Assembly: GCA_963695195.1 (NCBI GenBank) | Contig: CAVOGE010000007.1 | Span: 767,756-831,755 of the forward strand | Direction: 5' to 3' | Length of the DNA stretch: 64,000 bases | DNA from: an uncultured Chloroflexia bacterium | GTDB lineage: Bacteria > Chloroflexota > Limnocylindria > QHBO01 | Part shown: in pieces, positions 7,816-53,175 of the stretch | How the letters are laid out: each line of letters opens with the position of its first letter | Position numbering within the stretch: the first letter of the stretch is position 1 | Translations under genes and position numbers: made by a program | The notes under the pieces: generated by a model | Databases searched by the model: none | What the model saw: the letters and a program-made list of their open reading frames with translations, nothing else | Told to the model about the DNA's origin: nothing

Positions 7816-7830
7816 GGTGTGCGGATCTCC

Positions 7831-8386: not shown

Positions 8387-8521
8387 TCAGACGCTCAGCT
8401 TCTCGCGCCCCTTGGCTCGGCGCCGGGCCAACACGCGACGACCGCCCTTCGAAGACATGCGAGCGCGGAAGCCATGTTCGCGCTTCCGGGCGCGCTTCTT
8501 GGGCTGATAGGTCCTCTTCAT
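8387..8521 (-). CDS. rpmH: 50S ribosomal protein L34
   Basis: [44 protein letters not shown] is essentially the L34 consensus. Confidence 0.93.
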
Positions 8522-10180: not shown

Positions 10181-10473
10181 CTCGGTGCGGTCACGGTGTG
10201 GACAAGCGGCTCACATCCGCGGTTCGCGCCCCGGCGGGCCGGGCGGTAATCCACACGGGGCCGACGCGGATCCCCGGTCTGTGCACTTCCCAGGCGAGGG
10301 GACCAACAGGAGCGGGCCGGTTATCCGCAGCGCACGGGAGCGCGGCGGAGCACAACAACCCACACCGTCCACAGCACTACGAGAGACGGTGACGTACAGG
10401 TATCCTTGACGAGTATCAGAGTGGTGTTGAGCCTGGTGGTGGACAAGCCGCCCCAGATGAGGTTGAGGACTCG
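10181..10473. promoter_or_regulatory. Probable oriC: DnaA-box cluster and AT-rich unwinding element between dnaA and dnaN
   Basis: 9-mers within 1-2 mismatches of TTATCCACA or its complement: TGTGGACAA (10197), TAATCCACA (10247), TTATCCGCA (10321), CCGTCCACA (10364), GGTGGACAA (about 10437). The locally AT-rich segment ggtatccttgacgagtatcagagtggtgttgag lies at 10399-10431. Confidence 0.7.
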
Positions 10474-11601: not shown

Positions 11602-11634
11602 GGGCGCGACCCGGCCGGCGCCGCGGCGGCACCG

Positions 11635-12798: not shown

Positions 12799-13145
12799 GT
12801 CGCGCCGAGGAGGCTGCTACGGCTGTCCAGCGCGCCCTGCTGAGCTGCGTGGGCCCGGGCGCCGCCGAGCAGATCGCGCAGGCCCAGGCGCGGTTGGCGT
12901 GGGCAGAGGCGGTGGCCGCTGCCGGCCTGGAGCGCGCCGGCATGGAGTCGCGCCTGGTCCGGGTTCGGAACGGGATCGCTGATGTCGTGGCCTCGGATCC
13001 GATTCTCGCGCAGGAGCTGACGCTTCGCGCCGACGCCCTCGTGCACGGCGTCAACGCTCGCATGGCCGGACGCCCGGGCGCGACGATCGTCCTGGTCCGA
13101 CTCGCCGTAACGGTGGGTCGTGCAGGCACCGGTCGCTCCCTATAA
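12795..13145 (+). CDS. DUF721-type small protein that follows recF
   Basis: GTG start overlaps the recF stop (GTGA). Conserved position after recF. Only the 3' 351 nt of six-frame ORF 12357..13145 is used. Confidence 0.65.
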   Translation: MSRAEEAATAVQRALLSCVGPGAAEQIAQAQARLAWAEAVAAAGLERAGMESRLVRVRNGIADVVASDPILAQELTLRADALVHGVNARMAGRPGATIVLVRLAVTVGRAGTGRSL

Positions 13146-13191
13146 TCGACCACATCCCGCCGTCTCCCGGCCACCGCTCGAGCGCAGCCCC

Positions 13192-15414: not shown

Positions 15415-15433
15415 CCTCATCTAGAATCCGACG

Positions 15434-15964
15434 GTGAGGCTCATCGAGATGGTCGTGGAGAGCGTGCGCGTCCACATGCTCTCCAGCCAGCACGTTGTCA
15501 TCCTGAAGGAGTCGGACAGGGACCGATACCTGCCGATCTGGATCGGTCCCTCCGAGGCGAACGCCATCGCGATGCGCCTGCAGGGGCTCAACGCGGAGCG
15601 CCCGCTCACCCACGACCTGCTGGTCAGCATCGTCGGGACGCTCAACGCATCGGTGAGCCGGGTGGTGGTCACCAGCGTGACCGAGGGTACGTTCCACGCA
15701 CGCCTGTACGTGGAAGCTGCCGACGGCAGCGAGGCCGAGATCGACTCACGCACGAGCGACGCAATCGCTGTGGCAGTGCGCACCGGGTCGACCATCTACG
15801 TGGACGAGCGCGTCCTCGACGAGGCGGGGGTCACCCCAGACCGGGCGGAGGCGGGCGACGACCCCGACGAGAAGCTGGCGGTCTTCCGCGAGTTCATCAA
15901 CTCGCTCGACGTCGACCTAGGCGGTGGCGAGAAGGGGCCGCCCCGCGAGGAGTCCGGCGGCTAG
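15434..15964 (+). CDS. Bifunctional nuclease family (BFN/DUF151) protein
   Basis: VVILKESDRDRYLPIWIGPSEANAIAMRLQG...RPLTHDL matches the BFN domain core. GTG start. Confidence 0.7.
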   Translation: MRLIEMVVESVRVHMLSSQHVVILKESDRDRYLPIWIGPSEANAIAMRLQGLNAERPLTHDLLVSIVGTLNASVSRVVVTSVTEGTFHARLYVEAADGSEAEIDSRTSDAIAVAVRTGSTIYVDERVLDEAGVTPDRAEAGDDPDEKLAVFREFINSLDVDLGGGEKGPPREESGG

Positions 15965-38391: not shown

Positions 38392-39846
38392 CTAGAAGAG
38401 GCTCGCGACCGAGGCCTGGAGGAAGGTGAGCACCGGCTCCGGGAAGAGCCCCAGGGCCAGGACGGCGACCACCGAGATCGCCAGCGCAGCGACGCCGAGC
38501 GGCGAACGATCGATCGGTGCCGGCTCGGCCTCGGGGTCGCGCATGTACATGTAGACGATCACGCGCAGGTAGTAGAACGCGGCCAGCGCGGCATTCAGGG
38601 CGATCGCCACCGCGAGCCATGCGACGCCGGCATCGACGGTCGCGATCAGCACGTACAGCTTGGCGAAGAAGCCGACCGTCGGCGGGATGCCTGTCAGCGA
38701 CAGGAGCAGGATCGCCATCCCGGCGGCCAGCCACGGCGCGCGTGCGGCCAGGCCCGCGAAGCCGCCCAACCCGCCGAAGCGGCGCGGGTCGCGCTGCAGC
38801 ATGCCGACGACCGCGAAGGCAGCCAGGTTCATGACGCCATAGCCGAGCACGTAGAAGAGGACCGACTCGATCCCCTGCGCGCGGATGTCGGGGTTCGTCG
38901 CGTGGGCGAACGCGGCCAGGCCGGCCAGGATGTAGCCGGTGTGAGCAATGCTCGAGTAGGCGAGCATGCGCTTCACGTTGGTCTGGGTGAGCGCCACGAT
39001 GTTGCCGCCGGTCATGGTCACCACCGCCAGGATCGCCATCACACCGAACCAGTCCGCGCTCATCGGGCCGAGCCCCTCGGCGAAGAGGCGCACCAGCAGG
39101 GCAAAGGCACCGAGCTTTGGCCCAACTGAGAGAAAGCCGGTGATCGGCGTTGGCGCGCCCTGGTACGCGTCGGGGGTCCAGAAGTGGAACGGCACGGCGG
39201 CCGCCTTGAAGGTGGCGCCCACGGTCAGCAGCCCGATCGCCAGGATCCCGGCCGGGCCTGCCGCGTTCGCCAGGTCGCTCATCCCATCGATCCGCGTTGT
39301 CCCGGTCAGCCCGTACGTCCAGCTGATCCCGAAGAGCAGGATGGCGCTGGCGAACGATCCGAGCAGGAAGTACTTGAGACCGCCCTCGTTGCTGTACCGA
39401 TCGGTCTTGTGGAAGGCGGTCATCAGGTAGGCGGGCATGACCATCAGCTCGAGGCCGATGAAGAGTGTGATCAGGTCAGCGCTCGAGGCCAGCACGAACA
39501 TGCCGATCAGGCTGAAGACGAGGATCGCGTTGAACTCGCCGAGCGGCAGCCGGCGCTGCGCCAGGTAGGAGGGGGCGAAGAGCGCCGCCAGGATGCCGAT
39601 GACCACGGTCGCGGCCTTGAAGAAGACCGACAGGTCGTCGACCACGTAGAAGCCCTCGAAGATGCGGTCGTTGACGCCCCAGACCGGGATGCAGGCGGCG
39701 CCGACCAGGACAAGGCCGGCCACGGTGATGGGCGTCAGGATCCACTTGCCGCTCGGTGGCAGGAACAGGTCCACGGTGATGATCGCCAGCACCAGGAGGA
39801 CCAGGATCAGCTCGGGGAGGAGCGGGGCGAGGTCGATCAGCTGCAT
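38392..39846 (-). CDS. nuoN: NADH-quinone oxidoreductase subunit N
   Basis: 484 aa antiporter-like subunit. Last gene of the nuo operon. Confidence 0.9.
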   Translation of the reverse strand: MQLIDLAPLLPELILVLLVLAIITVDLFLPPSGKWILTPITVAGLVLVGAACIPVWGVNDRIFEGFYVVDDLSVFFKAATVVIGILAALFAPSYLAQRRLPLGEFNAILVFSLIGMFVLASSADLITLFIGLELMVMPAYLMTAFHKTDRYSNEGGLKYFLLGSFASAILLFGISWTYGLTGTTRIDGMSDLANAAGPAGILAIGLLTVGATFKAAAVPFHFWTPDAYQGAPTPITGFLSVGPKLGAFALLVRLFAEGLGPMSADWFGVMAILAVVTMTGGNIVALTQTNVKRMLAYSSIAHTGYILAGLAAFAHATNPDIRAQGIESVLFYVLGYGVMNLAAFAVVGMLQRDPRRFGGLGGFAGLAARAPWLAAGMAILLLSLTGIPPTVGFFAKLYVLIATVDAGVAWLAVAIALNAALAAFYYLRVIVYMYMRDPEAEPAPIDRSPLGVAALAISVVAVLALGLFPEPVLTFLQASVASLF

Positions 39847-39856: not shown

Positions 39857-41380
39857 TCACCACGGCAGGCTGAACGAGGTCAGCCCCTGCGAGGATTCGA
39901 TCGCCTCGATGATGCGATCGACCGGCCCGCTGATCGCATCGAGCACTGGTCCCGGGAAGACGCCCAGCGCGACGACCAGCACGATCAGCGGCGCCAGCGC
40001 CAGCCACTCGTTGCGGTTCATGTCCCTGAGCGACGGCCACCAGCGGCGCATCCAGTCCGAGGGAACCGCGAAGAAGACGCGCTGGAACATCCAGAGCATG
40101 TATACCGCGCTCATGATCACCACGAGCATCGTGGCGGCGGCCACCCAGCCGGAGTACTGGAACGCGCCCAGCAGGACCAGGAACTCGCCGATGAAGCCCG
40201 ACAGGCCGGGCAGGCCGATGCTGGCGAAGGTGAAGAGGCCGAAGATCGCGGCGTACTGCGGCATCCGCGCATTGAGGCCGCCCATGTGCGCGATCGCCCG
40301 GTCGTGGGTGCGCTCGTAGATCACCCCGACCAGCAGGAAGAGGGCGCCGGTGGTGATGCCGTGGCTGATCATCTGGAAGATGGCGCCCTGGAGCCCCTGG
40401 ACGTTGAAGACGAAGGCGCCCAGCGTGACGAAGCCCATGTGGCTGACCGATGAATACGCGATCAGCTTCTTCAGGTCGGGCTGCACCATGCTCACCATGG
40501 CGCCGTACAGGACCGCGATCACGGCCAGGGCGATCACGAACGGCGCAAAGCTGACCGCAGCATCGGGAAGCAGCGGCAGGGAGTAGCGCAGGAAGCCGTA
40601 GCCGCCCAGCTTCAGCAGGACGCCGGCCAGGATGATGCTGCCGGCGGTGGGCGCCTCGACGTGGGCATCGGGCAGCCAGGTGTGGAACGGCCACATCGGG
40701 ACCTTGATGGCGAACGCGAGGAAGAACGCAACGAACGCCAGCGCCTGGAGTCCGTCGGCGTAGCCGAAGCCGCGCAGCGTCTCGTAGCTGAAGGTGAACG
40801 GGTGCCCGGCCCCCGCATGCGCGATCGCCACCGCCAGGATGGCGACCAGCATCAACAGCGAGCCGACCAGGGTGTAGATCACGAACTTGACGGTGGCGTA
40901 GATTCGCCGCGGTCCGCCCCAGATGCCGATGATCAGGTACATCGGAATCAGGCTGATCTCCCAGAAGACGTAGAACAGGAAGAGGTCGAGCGAGACGAAG
41001 ACGCCGAGCATGCCGACCATCAGCAGCAGCATCGCCGCGTAGTACTCCTTGACGCGGACCCGGATCGGATCCCAGGAGTAGAAGATGCTGACCACGCTCA
41101 GGACCGTGGTGAGCAGCACCAGGACGACCGAAAGCCCGTCCACGCCGAGCGTGTAGCGCATCCCGAAGGCGGGGATCCAGGAGAGATCCTCGCGGTACTG
41201 GAACTCCGCTCCGGCGGTGCTGTAGCCGAGCAGCGCCAGGCTGAACCCGAAGCTGGCGAGCGATGCCAGCAGCGCGATCCAGCGCACGGCACGGTGGTTA
41301 TCGCCGGGGACGAGGAGCAGGACCACGACGCCGATAAGCGGCGAGAAGACGATGAGAGAGAGGATCGGCAGATCGCTCAT
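39857..41380 (-). CDS. nuoM: NADH-quinone oxidoreductase subunit M
   Basis: Start at Met58 of the six-frame ORF (MSDLPILSLIV), overlapping the nuoL stop. Typical NuoM blocks. Confidence 0.9.
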   Translation of the reverse strand: MSDLPILSLIVFSPLIGVVVLLLVPGDNHRAVRWIALLASLASFGFSLALLGYSTAGAEFQYREDLSWIPAFGMRYTLGVDGLSVVLVLLTTVLSVVSIFYSWDPIRVRVKEYYAAMLLLMVGMLGVFVSLDLFLFYVFWEISLIPMYLIIGIWGGPRRIYATVKFVIYTLVGSLLMLVAILAVAIAHAGAGHPFTFSYETLRGFGYADGLQALAFVAFFLAFAIKVPMWPFHTWLPDAHVEAPTAGSIILAGVLLKLGGYGFLRYSLPLLPDAAVSFAPFVIALAVIAVLYGAMVSMVQPDLKKLIAYSSVSHMGFVTLGAFVFNVQGLQGAIFQMISHGITTGALFLLVGVIYERTHDRAIAHMGGLNARMPQYAAIFGLFTFASIGLPGLSGFIGEFLVLLGAFQYSGWVAAATMLVVIMSAVYMLWMFQRVFFAVPSDWMRRWWPSLRDMNRNEWLALAPLIVLVVALGVFPGPVLDAISGPVDRIIEAIESSQGLTSFSLPW

Positions 41381-43608
41381 GGCCGCAGCACCAGGTAGGC
41401 GACCAGCACCAGCGCCAGGCCGGCGGCCATCCCCAGTCCGTAGTTCTCGACGCGGCCGGTCTGTGCTCGCCGCAGCAGCCCGCCGAACCGTTGGGCGATC
41501 CACCCGGCGCCGTTGACCGCGCCGTCGATCACCTTGGCGTCGAACCACCACAGGGCGTTGCCGACCAGCACGCCGCCGCGCGCCCAGACGAGGCCGTACA
41601 GGTCATCCACGTAGTACTTGTTCAGGCTGGCCGCGTACATCCCCGGTCCGAGGCCGAACGGGATGCGGACGACGAAGCGCCGCGGCGCCTCCGGATCACC
41701 GACGTACCAGCGATGCGCCAGCCAGATCCCGGCCACCCCCACCGACGCGCCGATAAGCAGCAGCAGTCCCCCGATCCCGAACAGCTCGAAGCCGTGGTGC
41801 TCGCCGGCGGCGATCGAGCCAGAAAGGATGCCGGCGCCAGCCTCCTCCGCGCCGTGGAAGACTTCCTCCAGCCAGGTGTGGATGAAGCCGCCCTCCGGAG
41901 GAAGTCCCAGGACCAGGCCGATCAGCGCGGTCGGGACGGCCAGGATGATGAGCGGCCAGACCATGGTCGGCGCCGACTCGTGAACGTGGTGCCAGGCGTC
42001 GCGCGGTCCGCGCCACGCCCCGTGGAAGGTCATGAAGATCATGCGGAAGGTGTAGAAGGCGGTCATGAAGGCGACGATCACGCCGACCGCGTAGAACAAG
42101 TAGTAGCCGCGGTTGAACGACTCGGCCAGGATCTCGTCCTTACTGAAGAATCCCGCAAAGAGCGGGATCCCGGCGAGCGCCAGCGCCCCGACCACCATCG
42201 TTCGGTAGGTCCACCTCATGCGTTCACGCAACCCGCCCATGAAGCGCATGTCCTGCTCGCCGGACGCCCCGTGGATGACCGAGCCGGAGCCCATGAAGAG
42301 GAGCCCCTTGAAGAAGCCGTGGCTGACCAGGTGGAAGATGGCCGCCACCCAGGCACCGATCCCCAGCGCGAAGAACATGTAGGCCAGCTGGCTCACCGTC
42401 GAGTAGGCGAGCACCTTCTTGATGTCGTTCTGGGTCAGCGCGATCGCGGCGGCAAAGATGGCGGTGAAGACGCCGATGCCGGCCACCACCCACATGGCGA
42501 CCGGGCTCTCCACGAAGATCGGGTTGGCGCGGGCGACCATGTAGACCCCGGCGTTGACCATCGTCGCGGCATGGATCAGCGCGCTGACCGGGGTGGGACC
42601 CTCCATCGCGTCCGGCAGCCAGACGTGCAGCGGGAACTGGGCGCTCTTGCCGACCGCGCCGGCGAAGAGGAGCAGCGCGATGACCGTCACGGCGGTCGGG
42701 TCGAGGCCGCCGATGCCGGCGAAGACCTCCTCGAAGTTGAGGGTTCCCAGCATCGTCCAGATCATCATGATCCCGAGGCCGAAGCCGAAGTCGCCGACCC
42801 GGTTGACCACGAACGCCTTCTTGGCAGCACCGGCCGCCGAGGGCTTCTTGTACCAGAAGCCGATGAGCGCGTAGCTGCACAGGCCGACCGCCTCCCAGCC
42901 GACGTACAGCATCAGGAAGTTGTCGCCCAGGATCAGCAGCAGCATGCTGAACATGAACAGGTTCAGGTAGGCGAAGAAGCGCCACAGCCCGCGGTCGCCG
43001 TCCATGTAGCCGATGCTGTAGACGTGGACCAGCAGGCCGACCGTGCTCACCACCAGGAGCAGCGCGGCGGTCAGGCCGTCAACCAAGAACGCGATCTCGA
43101 TCTGGAAGTCGCCCGACACGATCCATTCGTAGACCGAGACGTGGTACACGTTGCCGCCGAAGACCACGTTGGCGAAGACGATCATGGAAAAGGCCCAGGC
43201 GATCCCGACCAGTGCGGTCGGCACCCACCAGGACCGATAGCTCGGGCGCGGGCCGCCCTCGACCACATGCCCGGCCTGTCCAAGCCCGTCGTTCATGTCG
43301 TCAGGGATCACCCCGTCGGCTCCGCTGCTGTTGGCCAGGTCGTCCGCGTGGCCGGCGTGCGGCGAGCTGAGCGCCTGCTCCTCCTCGGACGGGATGGCGC
43401 GGAACGCGGAGTCGTCGACCTCGCCGGAATCGTGCCCATCACCGCCGTGGCCTGCGTGCCCGCCATGGTCATCGGCGTGCGCGTCGTCGCCGTGCTCATC
43501 GTGGCCATGCGACGGAACGCGATCCAGCCGCGAACCTGCGAGCACGGCGAACAGGAAGCCGGCCAGCGGCAGCGCCGGGATGAGGGCGATCAACAGCTCG
43601 GTCGACAT
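41377..43608 (-). CDS. nuoL: NADH-quinone oxidoreductase subunit L with an about 110-aa His/Asp-rich insertion after TM1
   Basis: 743 aa against about 630 typical. Conserved NuoL core and a long C-terminal helix region. The insert is RVPSHGHDEHGDDAHADDHGGHAGHGGDGHDSG... Confidence 0.9.
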   Translation of the reverse strand: MSTELLIALIPALPLAGFLFAVLAGSRLDRVPSHGHDEHGDDAHADDHGGHAGHGGDGHDSGEVDDSAFRAIPSEEEQALSSPHAGHADDLANSSGADGVIPDDMNDGLGQAGHVVEGGPRPSYRSWWVPTALVGIAWAFSMIVFANVVFGGNVYHVSVYEWIVSGDFQIEIAFLVDGLTAALLLVVSTVGLLVHVYSIGYMDGDRGLWRFFAYLNLFMFSMLLLILGDNFLMLYVGWEAVGLCSYALIGFWYKKPSAAGAAKKAFVVNRVGDFGFGLGIMMIWTMLGTLNFEEVFAGIGGLDPTAVTVIALLLFAGAVGKSAQFPLHVWLPDAMEGPTPVSALIHAATMVNAGVYMVARANPIFVESPVAMWVVAGIGVFTAIFAAAIALTQNDIKKVLAYSTVSQLAYMFFALGIGAWVAAIFHLVSHGFFKGLLFMGSGSVIHGASGEQDMRFMGGLRERMRWTYRTMVVGALALAGIPLFAGFFSKDEILAESFNRGYYLFYAVGVIVAFMTAFYTFRMIFMTFHGAWRGPRDAWHHVHESAPTMVWPLIILAVPTALIGLVLGLPPEGGFIHTWLEEVFHGAEEAGAGILSGSIAAGEHHGFELFGIGGLLLLIGASVGVAGIWLAHRWYVGDPEAPRRFVVRIPFGLGPGMYAASLNKYYVDDLYGLVWARGGVLVGNALWWFDAKVIDGAVNGAGWIAQRFGGLLRRAQTGRVENYGLGMAAGLALVLVAYLVLRP

Positions 43609-43612: not shown

Positions 43613-43918
43613 CTATTCCTTCAGGTCCGCGTACTGGTCAACCTCGGCCGTCTTGCGCGTGCGGATGATGGCGATCACCAGCGCAAGCCCGACCGTGGCC
43701 TCGGCAGCGGCCACCGCCATGACCAGCAGGGCGAAGATGGCGCCCGCAGGTGAGCCGTCGGGCGCGTAGGCGTTGAATGCGACCAGCGACAGGTTGACCG
43801 CGTTGAGCATCAGCTCGATCGAGATCAGCATCAGGATCGCGTTCCGACGCGCCATGAAGCCAAAGGCGCCGATCCCGAACAGGATCGCGGAGACGAGGAG
43901 GTAGCCCTGCAGCCCCAT
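43613..43918 (-). CDS. nuoK: NADH-quinone oxidoreductase subunit K
   Basis: 101 aa: MGLQGYLLVSAILFGIGAFGFMARRNAILMLISIELMLNAVNL... Confidence 0.9.
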   Translation of the reverse strand: MGLQGYLLVSAILFGIGAFGFMARRNAILMLISIELMLNAVNLSLVAFNAYAPDGSPAGAIFALLVMAVAAAEATVGLALVIAIIRTRKTAEVDQYADLKE

Positions 43919-44427
43919 CAGTTGGCCCCCTCGTCGTCTTCGGGGCGGCGGGCGATGTAGATGGCACCGATGATCGCCACCAGCAGCAGCAGGCTGAGGA
44001 TCTCGAAGGGCAGTGCATAGTCGGTGAAGAGCGCGGTGGCGATCGTCTCGACGCTCACCGCGGTGACCTCCAGGGCGCCGTGCCAATCGGTCTGGGTGAC
44101 GGTGTAGCCGATCAACCCCACGATGATCAGCGCCACCAGCCCCGCGACCCAGACCTGCGGATGGAACGGGCGCGGCAGGTTCGCGTCGCCCGCCTGGGTG
44201 AGCATGATCGCGAACAGGATCAGGACGCTGATGGCGCCGAGGTAGATGAGCACCTGGGCGGCAGCCACGATGGGGGCGCCCAGCAGCGCATACATCCCCG
44301 CCAGCGAGCCGAAGCAGACCATCATCGCCACGGCGCTGTGGATGATGTTGCGCAGCGTGACGACCAGCAGTCCGGCACCGATGACGCCGACGGCGAGCAG
44401 GATGAAGAGGACGCCGGAGAGGTCCAG
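43918..44427 (-). CDS. nuoJ: NADH-quinone oxidoreductase subunit J (probable CTG start)
   Basis: The conserved N-terminus LFILLAVGVIGAGLLVVTLRNIIHSA lies upstream of the first ATG, GTG or TTG. The only in-frame candidate after the stop is CTG 44425-44427, 8 nt after AGGAG. Confidence 0.7.
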   Translation of the reverse strand: MDLSGVLFILLAVGVIGAGLLVVTLRNIIHSAVAMMVCFGSLAGMYALLGAPIVAAAQVLIYLGAISVLILFAIMLTQAGDANLPRPFHPQVWVAGLVALIIVGLIGYTVTQTDWHGALEVTAVSVETIATALFTDYALPFEILSLLLLVAIIGAIYIARRPEDDEGAN

Positions 44428-44753
44428 GGCTGCGGCTCCTGCTGGGTGATTGAGCGCTCAAACGGCCTCGCCGATCAGAGATCCGAGGCCGTATCCGATT
44501 CTAGCGCAGCCCGAGTTCGGCTTACGCCGTTGCCAGGGGGCCTCGCGGCAGGCTCCGGGCGAAATGCTCAGCATCTGAGCATATGGACAGGGATATGCCT
44601 CAAATGCCCTCGATTCGTCGCCGTTCCGCTCAGCTGCCGAGCATTCGGCCGGCATTCCACACCATCTCGGCTCTTGTGCTCAGATGCTGAGCAGCCATCC
44701 CTTCAGAGGCGAGCATCACCAGCCGAGGAAATGGTTGCCCACCTCATCAACTC

Positions 44754-47142
44754 CTACCTGGTGGGACGCTCCCGGTCGGACATCTCGAGGATGTCGAGCA
44801 TGGGCAGATCGCGCTGGTATTCGCTGAACTCGAACTCCGGTCCGCAGCGCAGGGCGTCGTACGGGCAGGCATCGGCGCAGATGCCACAGAAGATGCAGCG
44901 GCTCATGTCGAGCTGGTAGGTCTCGAGGGTGCGCGGCCGCGGCATCAGGGCGCCGACCGGGCAGGTCTCCGCGCAGCGGCCGCACGACACGCACGGCGTC
45001 TCGTTGAGGGAGACGAAGTCCGCGGTGGTGACGAGTGAGTCGAAGCCCTTGCCGATGAAGTCGTAGCAGCCCGCACCCACGACCTCCTTGCAGACCTGCG
45101 CGCAGCGACCGCAGTCGATGCAGCGGGAGTAGTCGCGCAGGATGAAGGAGTGGGTCTCGTCGCGGCCGTAGCCGTGGTTGACGCCGACGTACGGGTTGTC
45201 CTGGATCGAGCGCTCGTCGATCGCCATGTTGAGCGTCGTCTCGTACTCGATCGCCGCCTCGCGCAGGTCGCAATGGCCGATCGCCTCGCAGGTGCACTGC
45301 AGGCAGCGCCCCGCCTCGGCCATCGCCTGGTCGCCGGTGTAGCCGTGCTCGTACTCGCCGAAGCCACCCTTGCGCTCGTCGGCGCCGAGCTTGCCCATCA
45401 CCGCGCGCGGCTCCTTCACGTCGTCGGTGAACGGCACGATCGTCAGGAAGGAGGGCTGCGGCTCGGACACGATGCGGCGCACCTGCGGGTCGTCGAGGTC
45501 GTGGCCGCGCAGCCAGTAGTCGATCGCGTAGCTGGCGCGCCTCCCCTCGCCGATCGCCTCGACCACGGTCTGGGCGCCGTTGCGCACGTCGCCGGAAGCG
45601 AAGACACGCGGGACGCCGGTGCGGAAGATGTCGTCCTCGGCGACCAGGGTGCCGCGCCGGCTCACCTCCAGCTGCGAGCGGATCTCGTCCGGCTCGCTGT
45701 CGACCCAGGAGAGCTCAGGGCCCTGGCCGATGGCGCCGAGCACGGTGTCGCACGCCACGACGAACTCGGTGCCGGGCATCGGCTCCGGGCGGCGGCGACC
45801 CTTCTCGTCGGGCGCGCCGAGGCGCATCCGCTGGAACTCGACACCGGTCACCTTGTTGGCCGCATCGGTCACGACGCGGACCGGCGCCGCCTGGAAGATG
45901 ACCCGCGCCCCCTCCTCGATCGCCTCGTGCACCTCGTCGGCGGCAGGCATGTCCTTGAGGTCGCGCCGGTAGACGAGCGTCACCTCCGCGGCGGACTGGC
46001 GGATGCTGGTGCGCGTGCAGTCGATGGCGGTGAATCCTCCGCCGATCACGACCACCCGCGCCCCCTTCAACGCCGGGATCGGCACGCCGCGAGAGCTGTT
46101 GTAGAGGTTCTCGAGGGCATTGACCACGCCGTCGGCGTCCTCGCCGGGGATCCCCATCTCGTTGGATTTGTAGCAACCGATGCCGACGTAGACCGCGTCA
46201 TAGCCCTGCTCCAGGAGGTCGGCCACGTGGAAGTCCTTGCCGAGCCGCATGTTCGGGACGGAAGGTGGCGCCCAGCTCCCAGACGTGGTTCAGCTCGCGA
46301 TCCATCCAGGCCTTCGGCAGGCGGTACTCCGGGATCCCGTAGCGGAGCATGCCGCCCTGCTCCGGATCGGCCTCGTACACGTCGCAGTGATGACCGCGCA
46401 ACTGGAGGTAGTAGGCGGCGGACATCCCTGCCGGACCTGACCCGATGACGGCCACGCGCCGGCCGGAATCGGTCTCCTTCGGCCACGGCGTCGGTGCGGG
46501 GGCGTCCACCTCCAGCACCCGGTCGGCGCAGTAGCGGTGGCTGTCGCGGATGGCGATGGCGGTGTCCACCTCCTCGCGACGGCAGTGCGTCTCGCACGGG
46601 GCGGGGCAGACGCGACCCAGGATCGCCGGGAAGGGGAGCGAGCGCTTGAGGATGCGCGTCGCCTCCTCCCAGTTGCCGAGCGTGTTCTGCTTGAGATAGC
46701 CGGGGATGTCGACCCGGGTCGGGCACTTGAACTGGCACGGCGGCAGGCAGTACGCGTCGTGGTCGGAGAAGATCAACTCCAGGACCATCCGCCGGTTCTC
46801 GACCAAGCGCTCGGAGTGGGTGGTGATGACCATCCCCGGCTCGACGAAGGTGCCGCAGGAGATTGGCGTGCTCTCCTGGCCCTCGACCTCGACGACACAG
46901 ATTCGGCAGGCGCCGAAGGCGGCCAGTTTCGGCTCGTAGCAGAGGGTCGGGACGTCGATGCCCAGGACACGGCAGGCCTGCAGGATGGTCTGGCCTTCCT
47001 CGGCCTCGACCTGCTCGCCGTTGATGGTGACGCTCACCTTGGCCGAGCCGGGCACCATTGGCCAGAGGGGAGCGTAGTCCTCCGCGCGGAGGGCCACGCC
47101 CTTCCCGTTCCCCTTCCCGTTGCCGTTGGTGACGAAGCTCAT
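44754..47142 (-). pseudogene. Frameshifted mosaic FeS-flavoprotein gene: NuoG-type 2Fe-2S domain + GltD/NfnB-like FAD-NAD(P)H oxidoreductase + NuoG-type 4Fe-4S domain + NuoI (TYKY) C-terminal half. Six-frame ORFs 46198..47142 and 44754..46250.
   Basis: N-terminus VSVTINGEQVEAEEGQTILQACRVLGIDVPTLCYEPKLAAFGACRIC is a NuoG-like 2Fe-2S. GltD cluster motifs CLPPCQFKCPTRVDIPGYL and ILGRVCPAPCETHC, then VAVIGSGPAGMSAAYYL. After a +1 shift near 46250 come RVVVIGGGFTAIDC and ASGD. Then HSFILRDY...CIDCGRCAQVC...CVSCGRCAETCPVGAL (NuoG-type 4Fe-4S). Then SRCIFCGICADACPYDALRCGPEFEFSEYQRDL (NuoI C-terminal block). Confidence 0.6.
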
Positions 47143-47158
47143 GGCCGGTGCATCCTAC

Positions 47159-48523
47159 CTATGAGGCCGCCGGCCCGACGCCGGAGAGCGGCGCGAGGAG
47201 CGGTGCGACGTCGATGCCGCGGCACGAGCCGGCCGGGCACTCGCCGCGCTCGGCGTGGGCGCGGTACTCGTCCTCGAAGCGGTCGAGCGTGGTGAGCATC
47301 GGTCCGGGCGCACGCGATTCGAGGTGGCAGAGCGCGGTATCGGTCATCTTGCGCGACAGGTCGCGGAGCAGCAGCAGATCGTTCGGCCGGGGAGTCGCGG
47401 CAAGGATCCGGTCCAGCGTCTCGACCAGGCGCCTGGTGCCGATCCGGCACGGAACCGCCTTGCCGCAGGCCTCACGCGCCGAGTAGTCGAGGAAGAAGCG
47501 CGCGGTATCGACCATGCAGGTGTCGCTGTCGGTCACGAGGACCTGGCCGAGACCGATGCCCGCTCCCGCCTTTCGGAGTGGTTCGAAGTCATAGGGCGTG
47601 TCCAGCTCGCCGGCGCTGAGTGCGCCGCCGCCCGGCCCGCCGACGAAGACCGCCTTGGTCGTCCCGGAGCCGCCACCGGCGATCTTCAGCAGCGCGGAGA
47701 GCGGTGAACCGAGCGGCACCTCGGCCAGCCCGGGGTTGGCCACGCGGCCGTAGATGCTGACCAGTTTGGTGCCGGGGCTTGCCGCCGACCCGACAGCGCG
47801 GAACTCGTCGTTGCCGTGCCGCAGGATCCAGGCGGCGTGTGCCAGGGTCTCGGCGTTCTGGACGGTGGTCGGTGCGCCGCCGAGCCCGCGCTCGGTCGGG
47901 TACGGCGGCCGGATGACCGGCATGCCCCGATCACCCGCGAGCGCTGCCAGGAGTGCCGTCTCCTCGCCAGCGACCAGGGCAGCCGCACCCTCCCAGACGC
48001 TCACCGTGCAGGAGAAGTCGGTGCCCAGTACCAGGTAGCCGGCAAGGCGCGCCGCATCCGCCTCGGCCACGGCCGCGCGCAGTCGCTCGGTGGCCAGCGT
48101 CCAGTCGCGGCGCACTGCGATGATCGCCTCGGACGCGCCGGTCGCAAATGCGGCGATCATCAGCCCCTCGAGGACCAGGTGCGGGTTGCCCTCGGCCAGC
48201 GCGCGATCCCCGAGTGCCGTCGGGTCGGCGCCGATCAGGTTGGCGACCACCACCTTTCGGCCGCCGGCTGCGTCGCGCGCGGCTCGCCACTTCGCCGCCG
48301 TCGGGTACCCGCCGCCGCCGCGCCCGCGAAGCCCCGCCGCCTCGATCTGCGCCAGGGTCATCTCCGGGCCGAGCGTCTCGACTGCTCGCGTCAGTCCCTC
48401 GTAGGCGTGTTGCTTTCTCGCCCCGTCCAGGGTGACGCGGGACCCGTCGCCGACGCCCTTCAGCAGCCGGTGCTCGCCGCCAGGGAGGATGCGGATCTGT
48501 CCTGAGAGCGCCTGTCCGGTCAC
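47159..48523 (-). CDS. nuoF: NADH dehydrogenase flavoprotein subunit NuoF-like
   Basis: GLRGRGGGGYPTAAKW is the FMN/NADH site. The C-terminal 4Fe-4S Cys cluster ACGKAVPCRIG...LCHLESRAPGP is present. Confidence 0.85.
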   Translation of the reverse strand: MTGQALSGQIRILPGGEHRLLKGVGDGSRVTLDGARKQHAYEGLTRAVETLGPEMTLAQIEAAGLRGRGGGGYPTAAKWRAARDAAGGRKVVVANLIGADPTALGDRALAEGNPHLVLEGLMIAAFATGASEAIIAVRRDWTLATERLRAAVAEADAARLAGYLVLGTDFSCTVSVWEGAAALVAGEETALLAALAGDRGMPVIRPPYPTERGLGGAPTTVQNAETLAHAAWILRHGNDEFRAVGSAASPGTKLVSIYGRVANPGLAEVPLGSPLSALLKIAGGGSGTTKAVFVGGPGGGALSAGELDTPYDFEPLRKAGAGIGLGQVLVTDSDTCMVDTARFFLDYSAREACGKAVPCRIGTRRLVETLDRILAATPRPNDLLLLRDLSRKMTDTALCHLESRAPGPMLTTLDRFEDEYRAHAERGECPAGSCRGIDVAPLLAPLSGVGPAAS

Positions 48524-49353
48524 GCCGGGCGCCCCGCTGTGGTCGCCGCCCGACGTCGCTCGCCGACCAGGTGGCGCGCCTGATCCGCGGTGAGCGGGCC
48601 GTAGACCAGCGTGTCGATCCGAATCGCCGGCGCGAGCGTCCCCGCGGCGACCGAATCGCTCGTCTCCAGGCTGAAGGCGCCGTCGTCGGTCGATTCGCCG
48701 GGGGCGATCCCCAACTCCTCGGAGAGTGCCGCGAGCAGCGCCTCGCCGCCGGCGAAACGACAGGCAGTGCAGTTGCAGACGGTGATCACGTGCCCTTCGC
48801 CGGGGAGCAGCCGGAAGCCGCCCAGCCCGGCGGCGCCGAAGACCTGCGCCCAGTGGATCGACATGCTGTCACTCACCTGGCGCAGGGCACGCTCAGGGAG
48901 ATAGCCGTAGCGCTCCTGGACCGCGGAAAAGATCGCCACGAGCGACTCGGGGCGCCCGCCGAAGCCGTCGATGACGCCACGCATCCAGCCGGCGTCGATC
49001 TCCTCGTCCCAGCGCGCCACGTTGCGCATCGGGGCCGCGGCCAGGCCCGCGCGCCGGTAGGCGTTGGGATCCTTGCGCTCGTCGTAGATCTCCGGCATGC
49101 CGTAGCGGATCCGGTTCCCCTCCGAGTCGAAGCCGCTCATGTCGATCGCCTCGACCGGGCAGACCTGGGCGCACTGGAAGCAGACCTCGCACTTGTGCTC
49201 GCCGAACGGATCGTAGATCAGGTCGAGGCGGCCACGCCATCGGTCGGGCATGGTCGGGCGCTCTTCGGGGTACTGGCTGGTGACCTTGGGCGCCCAGTAG
49301 TTGCGCATGGTCACGCGCATCCCCTTCAGGATGCCGGCTCCCGGGATCCGCAT
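48520..49353 (-). CDS. Fusion protein: NuoI (TYKY) N-terminal half with one 4Fe-4S motif, joined to a NuoE-like 2Fe-2S thioredoxin-fold domain
   Basis: N-terminus KVTSQYPEERPTMPDRWRGRLDLIYDPFGEHKCEVCFQCAQVCPVEAI matches the first half of TYKY, and the second CxxCxxCxxxCP is absent. C-terminus VAIFSAVQERYGYLPERALRQVS...ITVCNCTACRFAGGEAL...LETSDSVAAGTLAPA matches NuoE. Confidence 0.75.
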   Translation of the reverse strand: MRIPGAGILKGMRVTMRNYWAPKVTSQYPEERPTMPDRWRGRLDLIYDPFGEHKCEVCFQCAQVCPVEAIDMSGFDSEGNRIRYGMPEIYDERKDPNAYRRAGLAAAPMRNVARWDEEIDAGWMRGVIDGFGGRPESLVAIFSAVQERYGYLPERALRQVSDSMSIHWAQVFGAAGLGGFRLLPGEGHVITVCNCTACRFAGGEALLAALSEELGIAPGESTDDGAFSLETSDSVAAGTLAPAIRIDTLVYGPLTADQARHLVGERRRAATTAGRPA

Positions 49354-49368
49354 CGGTCTGCCGCCCTC

Positions 49369-50379
49369 CTACAGGTTCAGCCAGACGACCACGCCGGCCG
49401 TCACGATCAGGTTGAGCATTGCCAGTGGCAAGAGCACCTTCCAGGCCATCCCCATCAGCTGGTCGACGCGAACGCGCGGGAGGGTGGCGCGCAGCCAGAC
49501 CGCCACGAACACGAAGAGGTAGCTCTTCAGGAAGAACCAGAAGATGCCGTACAGGGTGCCGCCGAATCCTTCGAACTGAGCGGGGAATGGCCAGGGGGCC
49601 AGCCAGCCGCCGAAGAAGAGGGCGACCATGATCCCGCTCATGATGAAGAGCGCCACATATTCGGCGAAGAAGAAGAAGCCGAAGCGCATCCCGGAGTATT
49701 CCGTGAAGGGTCCGGCGACCAGCTCGCTGTCGGCCTCGATCATGTCAAACGGGGTGCGGTTGATCTCGGCGAGCGACGCGATGTAGAAGATCCCCCAGCC
49801 GACCGGCTGCCAGAGGAGCATCCAGCCGTGGGCGAGCTGCCATTCGATCACTTCGCGGAAGTTGAGCGTGCCACCCAGGACCACCACGCCCACCACCGAG
49901 AGGGTCAGCGGGATCTCGTAGCTGACCATCTGGGCCGCACTTCGCAGGCCACCCAGCAGCGAGTACTTGTTGTAGCTGGCCCAACCAGCAATCAGCATGC
50001 CCACGACCGAGAGGCCGATGATGGCGAAGAAGTAGACGATCCCGATGCTGAAGTCGGCCGCGATGGCTCCCGGCGCCCACGGGATGACGAGCATGCTCAT
50101 GGCCGCCGCCATGTAGACCATCCACGGTGCCATGGTGAAGGTCGTCCGATCCGCCTGGTCGGGCATGTGGTCTTCCTTGGCAAGGAACTTGAAGCCGTGG
50201 ATCGTGCTCTGGAACATGCCCCACGGCCCGATCCGGTTCGGGCCGTAGCGCAGCTGCATCTGGGCGATCACCTTGAGCTCCATCTGGATCACCACGAAGG
50301 CGGTCGGCACGGTAAGCAGCAGCAACAGGGTCGTGGCCAGCAGGAAGCGGCCGACACCCAGCAGCAGGTCCAGATCCAT
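49369..50379 (-). CDS. nuoH: NADH-quinone oxidoreductase subunit H
   Basis: 336 aa with 8 TMs. Conserved blocks QMQLRYGPNRIGPWG and EYSGMRFGFFFFAEY. Confidence 0.92.
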   Translation of the reverse strand: MDLDLLLGVGRFLLATTLLLLLTVPTAFVVIQMELKVIAQMQLRYGPNRIGPWGMFQSTIHGFKFLAKEDHMPDQADRTTFTMAPWMVYMAAAMSMLVIPWAPGAIAADFSIGIVYFFAIIGLSVVGMLIAGWASYNKYSLLGGLRSAAQMVSYEIPLTLSVVGVVVLGGTLNFREVIEWQLAHGWMLLWQPVGWGIFYIASLAEINRTPFDMIEADSELVAGPFTEYSGMRFGFFFFAEYVALFIMSGIMVALFFGGWLAPWPFPAQFEGFGGTLYGIFWFFLKSYLFVFVAVWLRATLPRVRVDQLMGMAWKVLLPLAMLNLIVTAGVVVWLNL

Positions 50380-51654
50380 CTACTTGTCCACCCCGCCCAT
50401 CACCGGATCGAAGCTGGCCATCACCGCCATCGTGTCGGCGATCAGGCGGCCCGGCATCAGCTTGGGGATCGCCTGCAGGCTGATGAAACTGGGGTCGCGC
50501 ATGCGGAACCGATACGGGTTCGGTCCGCCGTCGCTGATGGCGTAGACGCTGTACAGGCCGCGCGGCGATTCGACCGCAGCGTAGGCGCGTCCGGGCTTGG
50601 GGCGAATGATGCCGGGCACCTGCGCCTGGACCGGGCCGTGGGGCATCTTGTCCACGATCTGATCGATCAGGTGGATGCTCTGCTTGAGCTCCGCGACGCG
50701 CTGGAGGTAACGCGAGTAGACGTCGCCTCCCGACTGCGTGATCACGTCGAACTCGAGCTCGGGGTAGATCGAGTACGGATGTGCCTTGCGGACGTCGAAC
50801 GGCACGCCTGAGGCGCGCAGGCTTGGCCCCGTGACGCCCAGGGCGATCGCCTCGGCGCCTGACAGGACGCCCATCCCGATGGTGCGACCGCGGAAGATCT
50901 CGTTGTCGGTCATGATCCGCTCGTTCATCTCAATCGTTTTCAGGACACCGGCCCGCCAGGTTCCAAGGCGCGAGAAGAACTCGTCGTTGGCGTCGAAGTT
51001 CACGCCGCCGACGCGGAAGAAGTTGAACAGCATCCGCTGGCCGCTGATGGCCGACAGCAGGTCGACCACCTCGTCGCGATTGATGAACCCGTACAGGATC
51101 GGGGTCAGGCCGCCCATGTCGAGCGCCTGGAAGCCCATCATCAGCCCATGGCTGAAGACGCGGTTCAGCTCCACGACCAACGCGCGGATGTACTCGGCGC
51201 GCCTGGGCGCCTTGATGCCGTAGAGCTTCTCGAAGGCGATCGCCGGCGCGTGCTCGTTGTGCATCGCCGACAGGTAGTCCATCGGGTCGACGTAGGTCAT
51301 CACCGTTGTGTACGTGGCGTTCTCGCACAGCTTCTCGATGCCACGGTGCAGGTACCCCAGCACCGGGTCGATATCGACCACCACCTCGCCCCGGACCTTG
51401 ACCACCAGGCGCATGACGCCGTGGGTGGAGGGGTGCTGGGGACCCATGTTGACGAGCATCTCGCCGTCGCCAAGGGTGTAGACCTCGCGCTCGCGCTCGG
51501 TCTGCGGCGGCCGCTCCGGCAGGCCGACCGACTCGAACCCGGCGTATTCCCCTCCGCTCGCGGGTGGCCGCGCGAGGCCCGCTGCGGCCCGCAGGCGCGT
51601 CTCCTCGGCGCGCTCGAGGTCGAGAGGATCGGGGATGCGCACCTCGGAGGTCAC
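50380..51654 (-). CDS. nuoD: NADH-quinone oxidoreductase subunit D
   Basis: GTG start overlaps the nuoC stop (GTGA). MGPQHPSTHGVMRLVV and the C-terminal RMRDPSF region are present. Confidence 0.92.
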   Translation of the reverse strand: MTSEVRIPDPLDLERAEETRLRAAAGLARPPASGGEYAGFESVGLPERPPQTEREREVYTLGDGEMLVNMGPQHPSTHGVMRLVVKVRGEVVVDIDPVLGYLHRGIEKLCENATYTTVMTYVDPMDYLSAMHNEHAPAIAFEKLYGIKAPRRAEYIRALVVELNRVFSHGLMMGFQALDMGGLTPILYGFINRDEVVDLLSAISGQRMLFNFFRVGGVNFDANDEFFSRLGTWRAGVLKTIEMNERIMTDNEIFRGRTIGMGVLSGAEAIALGVTGPSLRASGVPFDVRKAHPYSIYPELEFDVITQSGGDVYSRYLQRVAELKQSIHLIDQIVDKMPHGPVQAQVPGIIRPKPGRAYAAVESPRGLYSVYAISDGGPNPYRFRMRDPSFISLQAIPKLMPGRLIADTMAVMASFDPVMGGVDK

Positions 51655-52214
51655 GATTCCGCCTCGGACGAGGTCGCGGCCTCCACGAAGTTGGACAGAT
51701 CCCAGGTCTCGGGACGCTCCAGCGGGACGACGCCGGCGGCGGACGAGTCGGCCGCGTCGTCGGGCAGCAGGAAGTCCTTGCGCTGCGGGAAGCTGCGGTA
51801 GTCGGGCGACATGTAGATCCGCCGCAGGTCGCGGCTGCCGTCGAAGACGATGCCCATCATGTCGTACATCTCGCGCTCGTGAAAGCCGGCCCCCTCCCAC
51901 AGGCCGGTGATGGTGGGGAGGTGCGGCTCTGTGCGATCGACGCGCGCCCGCACGCGGAGCCACGACGGATGCAGATCGGAATACAGGTGATAGACCACCT
52001 CGAAGTGCTCGGTCGGCCCGTAGTCCACTGCCGCCGCATCGGCGAGCATGGAGAAGTTGAGCTCCGGGTCGTCGCGGAGCCGCTCGAGCACCTCCACGTT
52101 GCGCGCTCCGTCGATGCGCACCTCGACCGTGTCCTCATCGGTCCAGACGGTCGGGGCGAGGTCTGCGAATCGGTCGAGGAGCAGGCGCACCAGCGCGCCG
52201 GCCGGCGCGCTCAG
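51651..52214 (-). CDS. nuoC: NADH-quinone oxidoreductase subunit C (start uncertain)
   Basis: [22 protein letters not shown] and [24 protein letters not shown] blocks. CTG 52212-52214 lies 6 nt after GGAAGGAGA. An alternative GTG 52188-52190 has no SD. Confidence 0.8.
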
Positions 52215-52825
52215 GTCACGTCTCCTTCCCAGTTGCTTCGCTGCGGGCCGCGGTCGACATACGTCGGCCACTCGCCGCGTCGCTGCAGGACCAGCTCGCG
52301 GAGCCGCAGCATCCCATAGATCAGCCCCTCCGGGCGTGGCGGGCAGCCGGGCACGTACACGTCGACCGGCATCAGCCGATCGACGCCCTGCACCACGCTG
52401 TAGCTGCGCTTGAAGCGGCCGCCCGAGGTCGTGCAGGTGCCCATCGCCACGCACCACTTGGGCTCGGGCATCTGCTCCCAGAGACGTACCAGCGGGCCCG
52501 CCATCTTGGTGGTCAGCGTGCCAGCCACGATCAGCACATCCGCCTGGCGGGGGCTGGCGCGCATCGGGAACATGCCGAAGCGATCGATGTCGTTCTTGCT
52601 GGTGGCGGTGCTCATCATCTCGATGGCGCAACAGGAGAGTCCCGACAGGAGCGGCCAGAGCGAGTTGGCGCGGATCAGGTCGAGCACGATGTCCGCCCGG
52701 GTGGGGATCACCTCGAGCAGGCCGTGGAAGCCGCCGCGCGGGTGCTCGGCCATCCCGAATTCGCGGAAGTCGTCGTCCCCCGCGAGGTCGGGGATGACGA
52801 TGGGGCCGTTGGTCTCTAGCGCCAT
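52211..52825 (-). CDS. nuoB: NADH-quinone oxidoreductase subunit B
   Basis: N2-cluster Cys motifs [23 protein letters not shown] and VPGCPPRPE are present. Confidence 0.92.
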
Positions 52826-53175
52826 GTCAGGTCACCCTTGCGCCAGGCGTACAGCTCGCCGAAGAGGAGGATCACCAGGAAGACGCCGATCAGCACGATC
52901 CCCTGGACGGCCATCGCTCGCACGGTGATCGCCCACAGGTAGACGAACACGATCTCCACGTCGAAGGCCACAAAGAGGAGCGCGTACAGGTAGAAGGCGA
53001 GCCCGAAGCGCGACCAGGTGTCGCCGATGGTGTCGATCCCGCACTCGTACGGCAGGCCCTTCTGCGGACGACGACGTCGATGGGTGATCAGCCACGAGAA
53101 CAGGATCGTGGCGAACACGAAGACCGATGTCGCAATGCCGAACCCGATGACGTAGAGCAGTCCGGTCTGATCCAT
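52816..53175 (-). CDS. nuoA: NADH-quinone oxidoreductase subunit A
   Basis: 119 aa, 3 TMs, PYECGID motif. Confidence 0.88.

Follow-up and report, generated by a model that had tools for sequence, protein, structure and literature searches.

We analysed a stretch of 64,000 nucleotides (the window; G+C about 69%) of contig CAVOGE010000007.1 from an uncultured Chloroflexia bacterium of the Limnocylindria lineage (assembly GCA_963695195.1), the minus strand of which carries a complex I (nuo) operon of unusual composition. Candidatus Limnocylindria is an abundant, uncultured class of soil and freshwater bacteria. The genes are arranged as nuoA-B-C-D-H, a fusion of the N-terminal half of NuoI (TYKY) with a NuoE-like domain, a NuoF-like gene, a mosaic gene (44754-47142) in which [2Fe-2S], GltD and HydA/NuoG-type iron-sulphur domains are followed by the C-terminal half of NuoI, a spacer, and nuoJ-K-L-M-N (Table 1). 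The set of Q- and P-module genes, i.e. A, B, C, D, H, J, K, L, M and N, is complete with all ten genes intact according to Pfam, and the translation of NuoB shows the cysteines of the N2 cluster (SCCAIE, GTC and GCPP). It is the three genes between nuoH and nuoJ that are unusual: the N-half of NuoI adjoins nuoH, and the C-half is the last coding part ahead of nuoJ. This gene order and domain content had been claimed in an earlier note made from the DNA letters, and both were recovered by Pfam and NCBIfam profiles.

Table 1. Position of the nuo genes, their domains and the associated features in the window
Feature	Position	Strand	Evidence or remark
nuoA	52816..53175	-	Pfam Oxidored_q4, E=1e-30
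nuoB	52211..52825	-	Pfam Oxidored_q6
nuoC	51651..52190	-	Pfam Complex1_30kDa
nuoD	50380..51654	-	Pfam Complex1_49kDa, E=6e-82
nuoH	49369..50379	-	Pfam NADHdh, E=2e-109
First fusion, 277 residues: NuoI N-half, conserved linker, NuoE-like domain	48520..49353	-	NCBIfam, Pfam, PDB
NuoI (TYKY) N-half, residues 1-95	49069..49353	-	Single CxxCxxCxxxCP motif at 49159-49191
NuoE-like domain, residues 128-265	48559..48972	-	Pfam 2Fe-2S_thioredx; alignments; AlphaFold2
NuoF/StnB-like subunit, 454 residues	47159..48523	-	Pfam Complex1_51K, SLBB, NADH_4Fe-4S
Mosaic 5' part, frame A: Fer2_4, Fer4_20, start of GltD flavin adenine dinucleotide (FAD) domain	46251..47142	-	Pfam; NCBIfam PRK12814 3-262
Run CCC with one extra base, splits the mosaic gene	46255..46257	-	blastn and tblastn against L001 orthologue
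Mosaic 3' part, frame B: GltD FAD/NADPH (reduced nicotinamide adenine dinucleotide phosphate) domain, HydA/NuoG-type two-cluster domain, NuoI C-half	44754..46250	-	Pfam, NCBIfam, PDB
HydA/Nqo3-type ferredoxin domain	44961..45122	-	Two CxxCxxCxxxC motifs, 45090-45122 and 44961-44993
NuoI (TYKY) C-half, last 62 residues	44754..44942	-	Third CxxCxxCxxxCP motif at 44865-44897; NuoI-specific PEFEFSEY tail
Intergenic spacer	44428..44753	-	Three 17-nt palindromes TGCTCAG-N3-CTGAGCA
Spacer palindromes	44565-44581, 44627-44643, 44677-44693		
nuoJ	43918..44427	-	Pfam Oxidored_q3; probable CTG start, AGGAG 8 nt upstream
nuoK	43613..43918	-	Pfam Oxidored_q2
nuoL	41377..43608	-	Pfam Proton_antipo_N and Proton_antipo_M
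nuoM	39857..41380	-	Pfam Proton_antipo_M
nuoN	38392..39846	-	Pfam Proton_antipo_M

Complementary NuoI segments in two proteins

The two parts of the first fusion protein are recognised by separate profiles. Residues 11-87 match positions 1-76 of the NuoI hidden Markov model (HMM) TIGR01971 with 52.6 bits, the NuoE/HoxE models of NCBIfam match residues 124-267 approximately, and Pfam 2Fe-2S_thioredx lies on residues 128-263 (E=8e-25). Residues 1-120, when compared with the PDB, find TYKY/NDUFS8/NuoI chains over residues 8-82 (E~1e-12), a match that takes in the N-terminal segment specific to NuoI and also the first cluster motif. In alignments the NuoI part is almost invariant between species. 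The NuoE-like domain keeps C193, C195 and C198, the second cysteine pair of the N1a [2Fe-2S] site being absent. An AlphaFold2 prediction of the natural fusion (10-sequence alignment) gave predicted local distance difference test (pLDDT) values of 56-94 for the NuoE-like part and below 50 for residues 1-115; the low values fit an incomplete domain, and fit a shallow alignment equally well.

The other half of NuoI is found at the end of the mosaic protein, the last 60 or so residues of which match positions 71-112 of TIGR01971 with 59.3 bits. The same C-terminus finds TYKY chains in the PDB (E~1e-13, query residues 25-70), again with a cluster motif, the second one, and with the PEFEFSEY tail. 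The preceding HydA/Nqo3-type domain (Pfam Fer4_Nqo3 at residues 370-435, NCBIfam matches to FeFe_hydrog_A6 and HoxU) is conserved in all clades, and the molybdopterin-like domain of NuoG is missing, GltD being present instead (Pfam, PDB). The NuoI, NuoE, GltD and NuoG-type segments that the earlier note had assigned to the two fusions were found again by domain profiles. The peptides that span the two junctions are ...GNRIRYGMPEIYDER... and ...MPRPRTLETYQLDMSR...

The single open reading frame (ORF) that the note had assumed for the mosaic gene does not hold, even though its domain content does. In the window the gene is divided between two ORFs that overlap and are read in different frames (46198-47142 and 44754-46250), and in comparison to the intact 793-residue orthologue of locus L001 (loci of relatives are numbered with L) there is one surplus C, with 97% protein identity on either side and no second lesion. 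The relatives have the mosaic as an intact ORF of 793-795 residues: most of the short-read relatives give one unbroken match over residues 1-795, and breaks like that of the window occur in several long-read contigs. Judged by this comparison, the frameshift is most likely a homopolymer sequencing error, and a very recent mutation may be the alternative. Programmed frameshifting at 46255 was ruled out, since the extra base is absent from the relatives.

The two NuoI segments overlap on TIGR01971 by no more than 6 positions. Each of them scores below the cutoff (52.6 and 59.3 bits vs 113), which is approached only by the sum, and no single polypeptide of the window combines two CxxCxxCxxxCP motifs with more than 113 bits. 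The eight cluster-ligating cysteines of NuoI are all present across the two proteins, CEVCFQCAQVCP plus CIFCGICADACP, and the NuoI flanks, YPEE...RWRGR on the N-terminal and PEFEFSEY on the C-terminal side, are kept in every clade. The pieces thus match complementary parts of the NuoI profile, as expected if TYKY is split into two fusions, which was the central claim of the earlier note. In a six-frame scan of the 64 kb the motif CxxCxxCxxxC was found only four times, once in the first fusion and three times in the mosaic, so that a complete two-cluster NuoI is absent from the window, in agreement with the note, which had tied its proposal to this absence from the operon; nor was one present in any of the loci read.

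The four motifs can be assigned as follows. Mosaic motif 1 (CIDCGRCAQVC) and motif 2 (CVSCGRCAETCPVGAL, 33 residues on) have the layout of the FS4B/FS4A domain known from [FeFe]-hydrogenase and HoxU, with its eight cysteines. Because these two form a complete set, the third mosaic motif, CIFCGICADACP, is an orphan, and the sole other orphan of the operon is CEVCFQCAQVCP in the 277-residue fusion. By homology the orphan motifs are the two halves of NuoI, and the four motifs together offer sixteen cysteines for four clusters. In 2x[4Fe-4S] ferredoxin folds, including Nqo9/TYKY, each cluster is held by three cysteines of one CxxCxxCxxxCP motif and one cysteine of the other. As each cluster draws on both motifs, we infer that the halves must re-associate in trans. 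The three consecutive motifs of the mosaic and the motif supplied in trans would then form a polyferredoxin-like wire leading from the HydA-type clusters to N6a/N6b.

Distribution and constraint of the split NuoI

Relatives were sought by scanning one genome per GTDB species, which gave at least 516 confirmed cases, and the best 80 loci were read. These best 80 all belong to Limnocylindria-type metagenome-assembled genomes (MAGs), one of them a closed chromosome of 2.09 Mb. Wherever the contig has sufficient length, the loci of these 80 GTDB species show the order nuoH, fusion, NuoF-like gene, mosaic with NuoI tail, nuoJ. The fusion itself has more than 120 full-length cluster representatives with 75-94% identity, whose source names are Chloroflexota or Candidatus Limnocylindria. 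The frameshift could suggest that the locus is an assembly chimera, or a decaying pseudogene cluster in the source organism. We regard this as extremely improbable. The same order recurs in dozens of independent short- and long-read assemblies of different projects, and this synteny in related genomes rules out misassembly, a check already proposed in the earlier note. Decay would also have to be reconciled with a lesion that is one 1-nt homopolymer indel in an otherwise undamaged gene, with similar breaks in long-read relatives while most short-read ones are intact.

The split is also present in more distant lineages. Identity of the NuoI C-half to that of the window is 95-100% in Limnocylindria and 45-61% in the distant clades, and every clade preserves the three C-terminal cysteine motifs of the mosaic together with the NuoI flanks. 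Loci L005 and L086 have a split NuoI in a contiguous operon at 36-40% identity of the fusion, L088 has one at 29%, and L089 is a Chloroflexi MAG with a split NuoI in which the NuoE part is truncated. A further lineage with split NuoI is represented by L004 and L090-L092; their contigs stop inside the NuoF-like gene, and the third gene lies beyond the contig end. In L093 (1321-6023) the domains are rearranged into a NuoI-N::NuoE protein, a 1048-residue thioredoxin-like [2Fe-2S]::NuoF::GltD protein and a 265-residue HoxU-like::NuoI-C protein, followed by nuoJKLMN, with NuoI junctions as in the window (TIGR01971 positions 1-71 and 69-114). Only two proteins of this HoxU::NuoI-C type were found among 5.8 billion sequences, the other matches being without the NuoI tail. 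The chimera of L088 type, used as a protein query, gave one match in a search limited by its word index.

Codon differences from the window, counted per codon across the Limnocylindria species, differ markedly between the domains. The N-half of NuoI has 0.064 amino acid-changing vs 0.192 synonymous-only differences per codon and the C-half 0.030 vs 0.215; the corresponding values of the NuoE-like domain are 0.257 and 0.296. Purifying selection is strong on either half of NuoI, and constraint on the NuoE-like domain is far weaker.

There are several points that limit the case for a trans-assembled NuoI. Mosaic motifs 2 and 3 may pair in cis, with motif 1 acting in trans, although this pairing contradicts the segment homology. 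An AlphaFold2 prediction of a single-chain chimera of the N-half and C-half, made without an alignment, reached a pLDDT of 34.6, too low to speak for or against pairing of the halves, and a frameshift that is real would mean an inactive enzyme in the source strain. Finally, the DNA inspected comprised the window and, for the orthologous loci, about 20 kb of surrounding sequence, and many Chloroflexota have more than one nuo cluster. The halves might on these grounds be vestigial, or serve a soluble Stn-like enzyme, with a complete NuoI encoded elsewhere in the genome, which we consider very unlikely: no complete copy appeared in the DNA inspected, the halves occupy the exact place of nuoI between nuoH and nuoJ, conservation of the eight cysteines and of the flanks specific to NuoI extends to lineages with 29% overall identity, and the rate of amino acid-changing differences is far below the synonymous rate in both halves. 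Taken together, the homology and its conservation make it likely that this is a complex I with a split NuoI assembled in trans.

A few of the loci deserve a separate remark. MAG SMAG_U2040 has two contigs (L034 and L044), each with the fusion gene and operon at about 76% identity to the window, which could be two copies of the operon or mixed strains in the bin. L093 is a low-GC relative in which the NuoE, NuoF and N5 motifs are all canonical.

Electron entry, related systems and origin of the inserted block

The NuoF-like and mosaic proteins have their best solved relatives in StnABC (8oh5, 9bov) and NfnABC (9n5u), transhydrogenases of Bfu type that bifurcate electrons, not among complex I subunits. 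The best PDB matches of the NuoF-like protein are 9bov_B and 8oh5_B; its residues 21-443 correspond to residues 107-532 (of 584) of 9bov_B with E=2e-116, and the N-terminal [2Fe-2S] and C-terminal 2x[4Fe-4S] domains of StnB are missing. Residues 34-753 of the mosaic are colinear with residues 4-698 of 9bov_A (E=1e-163; E=2.5e-145 against 8oh5_C), and the colinearity with StnC-like proteins runs up to the start of their FdhF-like domain. The mosaic has the features of BfuA/StnC-type proteins, i.e. 2Fe-2S, a GltD FAD/NADPH domain and HydA-type clusters. Its GltD part has those of GltD/NfnB, namely Fer4_20 and Pyr_redox_2 matches with the Fer4_20 cysteines, a GxGxxG FAD site and a dinucleotide site with the YRR signature. 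The FAD motif VAVIGSGPAGM (VAVIGSGPAGMSAAYY) and the second dinucleotide motif VVVIGGGFTAIDC...VYRRD (GGGFTA...VYRR) are intact in all clades; the latter we take to be an NADPH-type signature, as in GltD/NfnB.

The situation is different in the NuoF-like subunit, which scores 311 bits on TIGR01959 against a cutoff of 559 and is the least conserved member of the module (64-80% identity vs 81-93% for the mosaic). In the window NADE of the flavin mononucleotide (FMN) pocket is changed to NLIG and the N3 motif CGKCxxC to CGKAxxC. Throughout Limnocylindria, NADE(G)DPG appears as NL[IM]xxDP in all loci with a readable motif, and CGKCxxCR as CGKA[VI]PCR in 71 loci. Outside this group the pocket reads NGFE in L005 (Asp replaced by Phe, Glu kept) and N[GA]YG in L086, L088 and L089, and N3 has CGKT in L005 and L086 and has lost its third cysteine in L088; in L004 and L093 the NuoE and NuoF motifs are fully canonical.

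In Limnocylindria, loss has affected two ligands of N1a, one of N3 and the conserved Asp-Glu pair in the FMN pocket, so that NADPH at the GltD flavin appears likelier as the main donor. The branch for reduced nicotinamide adenine dinucleotide (NADH) and FMN would be degenerate in this group, electrons would enter at the GltD flavin, and the NuoE- and NuoF-like subunits would probably be mainly scaffold. In this respect the term NADH-input module, used for the block in the earlier note, is doubtful, the block being StnABC/NfnABC-like and its NuoF/NuoE-like parts being without conserved cofactor residues. A further indication comes from L086 (10001-10726, 241 residues) and L089 (10001-10648, 215 residues). 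In both of these fusions the NuoE-like part is shortened to its N-terminal helical region, with loss of the thioredoxin-like [2Fe-2S] domain, which suggests that this part is dispensable as a redox carrier.

Alternatively, NuoI may indeed be split while NADH is oxidised at the FMN of the NuoF-like subunit, GltD being an auxiliary entry or exit for NADP(H) in a dual-donor or transhydrogenase-linked enzyme. The NuoF-like protein keeps GRGGGG(Y/F)PT, GEETAL and three of the four N3 cysteines, and three cysteines can be enough for a cluster. Some NADH activity may remain, since the glycine-rich FMN loop and GEETAL are retained. In addition, the assignment to NADPH derives from the resemblance of its motifs to those of GltD/NfnB. 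The canonical motifs of L004 and L093 fit NADH oxidation too, and the StnAB homologues bind FMN and NAD+ (PMC10482914). We nevertheless think this alternative unlikely, as the NL[IM]x sequence and the Cys to Ala change in N3 are found in all of the Limnocylindria loci in which this motif was readable, N1a ligands are missing, and evolution is much faster in the E-like and F-like parts than in the GltD, iron-sulphur and NuoI parts. For NADPH specifically as the donor, the motifs put the probability slightly above even. The full explanation, donor included, seems to us fairly probable. It is a more tentative proposal, somewhat short of an even chance, that respiration in Limnocylindria and in several further lineages of Chloroflexota relies on a proton-pumping NADPH:quinone oxidoreductase, whose GltD-FAD input, derived from an electron-bifurcating transhydrogenase, would reach the Q-module via a TYKY that is purely a heterodimer of the two fusion proteins.

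With GltD as the entry, electrons would pass from NAD(P)H, probably NADPH, to the GltD FAD, the two GltD [4Fe-4S] clusters and the two HydA-type [4Fe-4S] clusters, and onward through N6a/N6b of the trans-assembled TYKY and N2 of NuoB to quinone at NuoD/H. The re-associated halves would rebuild N6a and N6b next to NuoB and NuoH and tie the input module covalently to the Q-module, and proton pumping by NuoH and NuoJ-N would proceed as usual. In known structures the amphipathic N-terminus of NuoI packs on NuoH. As the N-half carries this segment, each fusion would anchor the input module to the Q-module.

It is instructive to set the locus against systems that resemble it. Firstly, canonical NuoI/TYKY/Nqo9 (TIGR01971; 4hea chain 9, 7awt chain I) shares with it the N-terminal amphipathic segment, YPEE...RGR, both CxxCxxCxxxCP motifs, the ...FE..Y tail and the place between nuoH and nuoJ, but here the domain is divided over two polypeptides, each joined to a subunit of the input module. 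The features of the canonical N-module, i.e. four cysteines in NuoE, NADE/FMN and a four-cysteine N3 in NuoF, and the molybdopterin-like domain of NuoG, are absent here. Secondly, the likeness to StnABC/NfnABC (8oh5, 9bov, 9n5u; PMC7483475, PMC10482914) lies in the order of the three-gene block and its domain make-up. StnABC takes electrons from NADPH at the FAD in the GltD domain of its StnC subunit and passes them along the cluster chain (PMC10482914), and an off-pathway branch is carried by the FdhF-like C-domain of StnC, residues 683-1172 (PMC10482914; PMC7483475). StnC ends in this domain, whereas here the NuoI C-half stands at exactly that position; moreover, one ligand of N3 and those of the StnA-type [2Fe-2S] cluster have been lost, and, as the block forms part of the operon of a membrane-bound complex I, bifurcation to ferredoxin is unlikely.

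Thirdly, membrane complexes of Nuo-Bfu and Mbh-Bfu type have been predicted in which a Bfu module in the middle of the cluster replaces NuoEFG as input (Schut et al. 2022, PMC9304861). What defines their BfuBC core is a BfuB that contains FMN, a cluster of N3 type, a [2Fe-2S] domain at the N-terminus and a 2x[4Fe-4S] domain at the C-terminus, together with a BfuC that has [2Fe-2S] (PMC9304861). Our locus lacks such a bifurcating core, since the NuoF-like protein is without both terminal domains of StnB; one N3 cysteine and two BfuC cysteines are also missing. Nuo-Bfu has the normal A-N order, an intact NuoI and the full BfuBC core, and the paper makes no mention of a split or fused NuoI (PMC9304861), whereas here the module is of Nfn/Stn type (GltD), lies inside nuoI and is without the features that define the core. 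Predicted before was a Bfu module replacing NuoEFG; new, as far as we found, is a module inside nuoI with NuoI split. Fourthly, the 11-subunit enzymes (NDH-1, Fpo/Fqo, Desulfitobacterium type) have the same ABCDH(I)JKLMN backbone without canonical nuoEFG. They have been viewed as docking platforms for alternative donors, and what supplies electrons to them has yet to be settled (PMC3144371, PMC11238625). Here, in contrast, the donor module is encoded in the operon and covalently joined via the split NuoI, i.e. there is neither a soluble partner nor an FpoF-type add-on. Lastly, a gltD-related flavoprotein is reported to take the place of NuoI in operons of Mbx type from Thermotoga and proteobacteria (Degli Esposti 2015, PMC4758237). 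Common to these and the present locus is that a membrane module resembling complex I is joined by a GltD-type NAD(P)H flavoprotein; the difference is that here NuoI is retained in split form, the nuo Q- and P-modules are full, and NuoE/F-like subunits are present.

Complex I is thought to have evolved by the capture of soluble electron-input modules by an 11-subunit core. The simplest origin of the present arrangement would be a single insertion of a stnABC/nfnABC-like operon into the loop of nuoI between its two motifs in an ABCDHIJKLMN operon. It would have created two in-frame fusions, the NuoI N-half onto the N-terminus of the NuoE-like protein and the NuoI C-half onto the StnC-like protein. 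The earlier note had also proposed that an 11-subunit-type operon received an E-F-G-like block inside nuoI, and the halves at nuoH and nuoJ and the conserved order in deep lineages support it. The capture event is then recorded in the gene structure: a transhydrogenase-type module inside nuoI, with both junctions in-frame, kept over a very long time, down to 29% identity between lineages.

A full-text literature search found no published description of a split NuoI or of a NuoI::NuoE or NuoG::NuoI fusion, which agrees with the statement of the note that the arrangement is undescribed. If the proposal is correct, this would be the first case found of a core iron-sulphur subunit of complex I split over two polypeptides, a natural system for the assembly of 2x[4Fe-4S] domains in trans, and a split-domain adaptor that records how an 11-subunit complex I captured a soluble redox module. 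NADPH as donor via the GltD flavin would alter models of energy metabolism in an abundant uncultured soil class. There is also a consequence for annotation: the genes go under the names 'NuoE' and 'glutamate synthase small subunit', and nuoI and nuoG would be scored as absent by pipelines.

One candidate for a further split-NuoI fusion, P0158 of locus L087, was rejected, as it sits in a Por-Bfu cluster and not in complex I. In this cluster (7819-15933, P0158/P0294) genes of pyruvate:ferredoxin oxidoreductase surround BfuB/BfuC, and the NuoE-like subunit also has a single N-terminal CxxCxxCxxxCP motif. With this example at hand, fusions of half a ferredoxin with NuoE may recur in Bfu-type complexes of Chloroflexota.

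The spacer, the start of nuoJ and other features

The pattern TGCTCAG-N3-CTGAGCA occurs three times in the spacer between the mosaic gene and nuoJ, compared with 0.35 matches expected in the whole window. The outer two palindromes are able to pair as a long hairpin (fold z = -2.0), and the repeats may be an operator or an RNA structure ahead of nuoJKLMN; no ORF, Rfam family, consensus promoter or terminator was found in 44428-44753. The gap between the mosaic gene and nuoJ varies between species from about 80 nt to about 4.6 kb (e.g. 14732-16728 in L001/L002 and 14740-17423 in L003) and in some species holds genes on the opposite strand, i.e. an extracytoplasmic function (ECF) sigma factor with a 486-residue neighbour, or a VanZ-like gene. 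Because the gap takes insertions, the operon is probably often two transcription units, broken right after the NuoI C-half.

The nuoJ gene has no ATG, GTG or TTG ahead of its first transmembrane helix (44419-44440 in the window; loci L001-L085), and positions 2-146 of the Pfam Oxidored_q3 HMM are covered only if it starts at the CTG at 44427. The codon at the onset of similarity is CTG in 45/45 Limnocylindria loci, each with GGAG or AGGAG 7-10 nt upstream, and so CTG initiation looks like a class-wide conserved trait of nuoJ. Gene callers that miss this start truncate NuoJ.

NuoL has a His/Asp/Gly-rich insert near its N-terminus, at residues 33-62 approximately (HGHDEHGDDAHADDHGGHAGHGGDGHDSGE), which resembles a metal-binding or low-complexity loop. 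Outside the operon, a transfer-messenger RNA gene is located on the plus strand at 3585-3949 (Rfam RF00023, 133 bits), and it is the sole Rfam match above the gathering score in the window.

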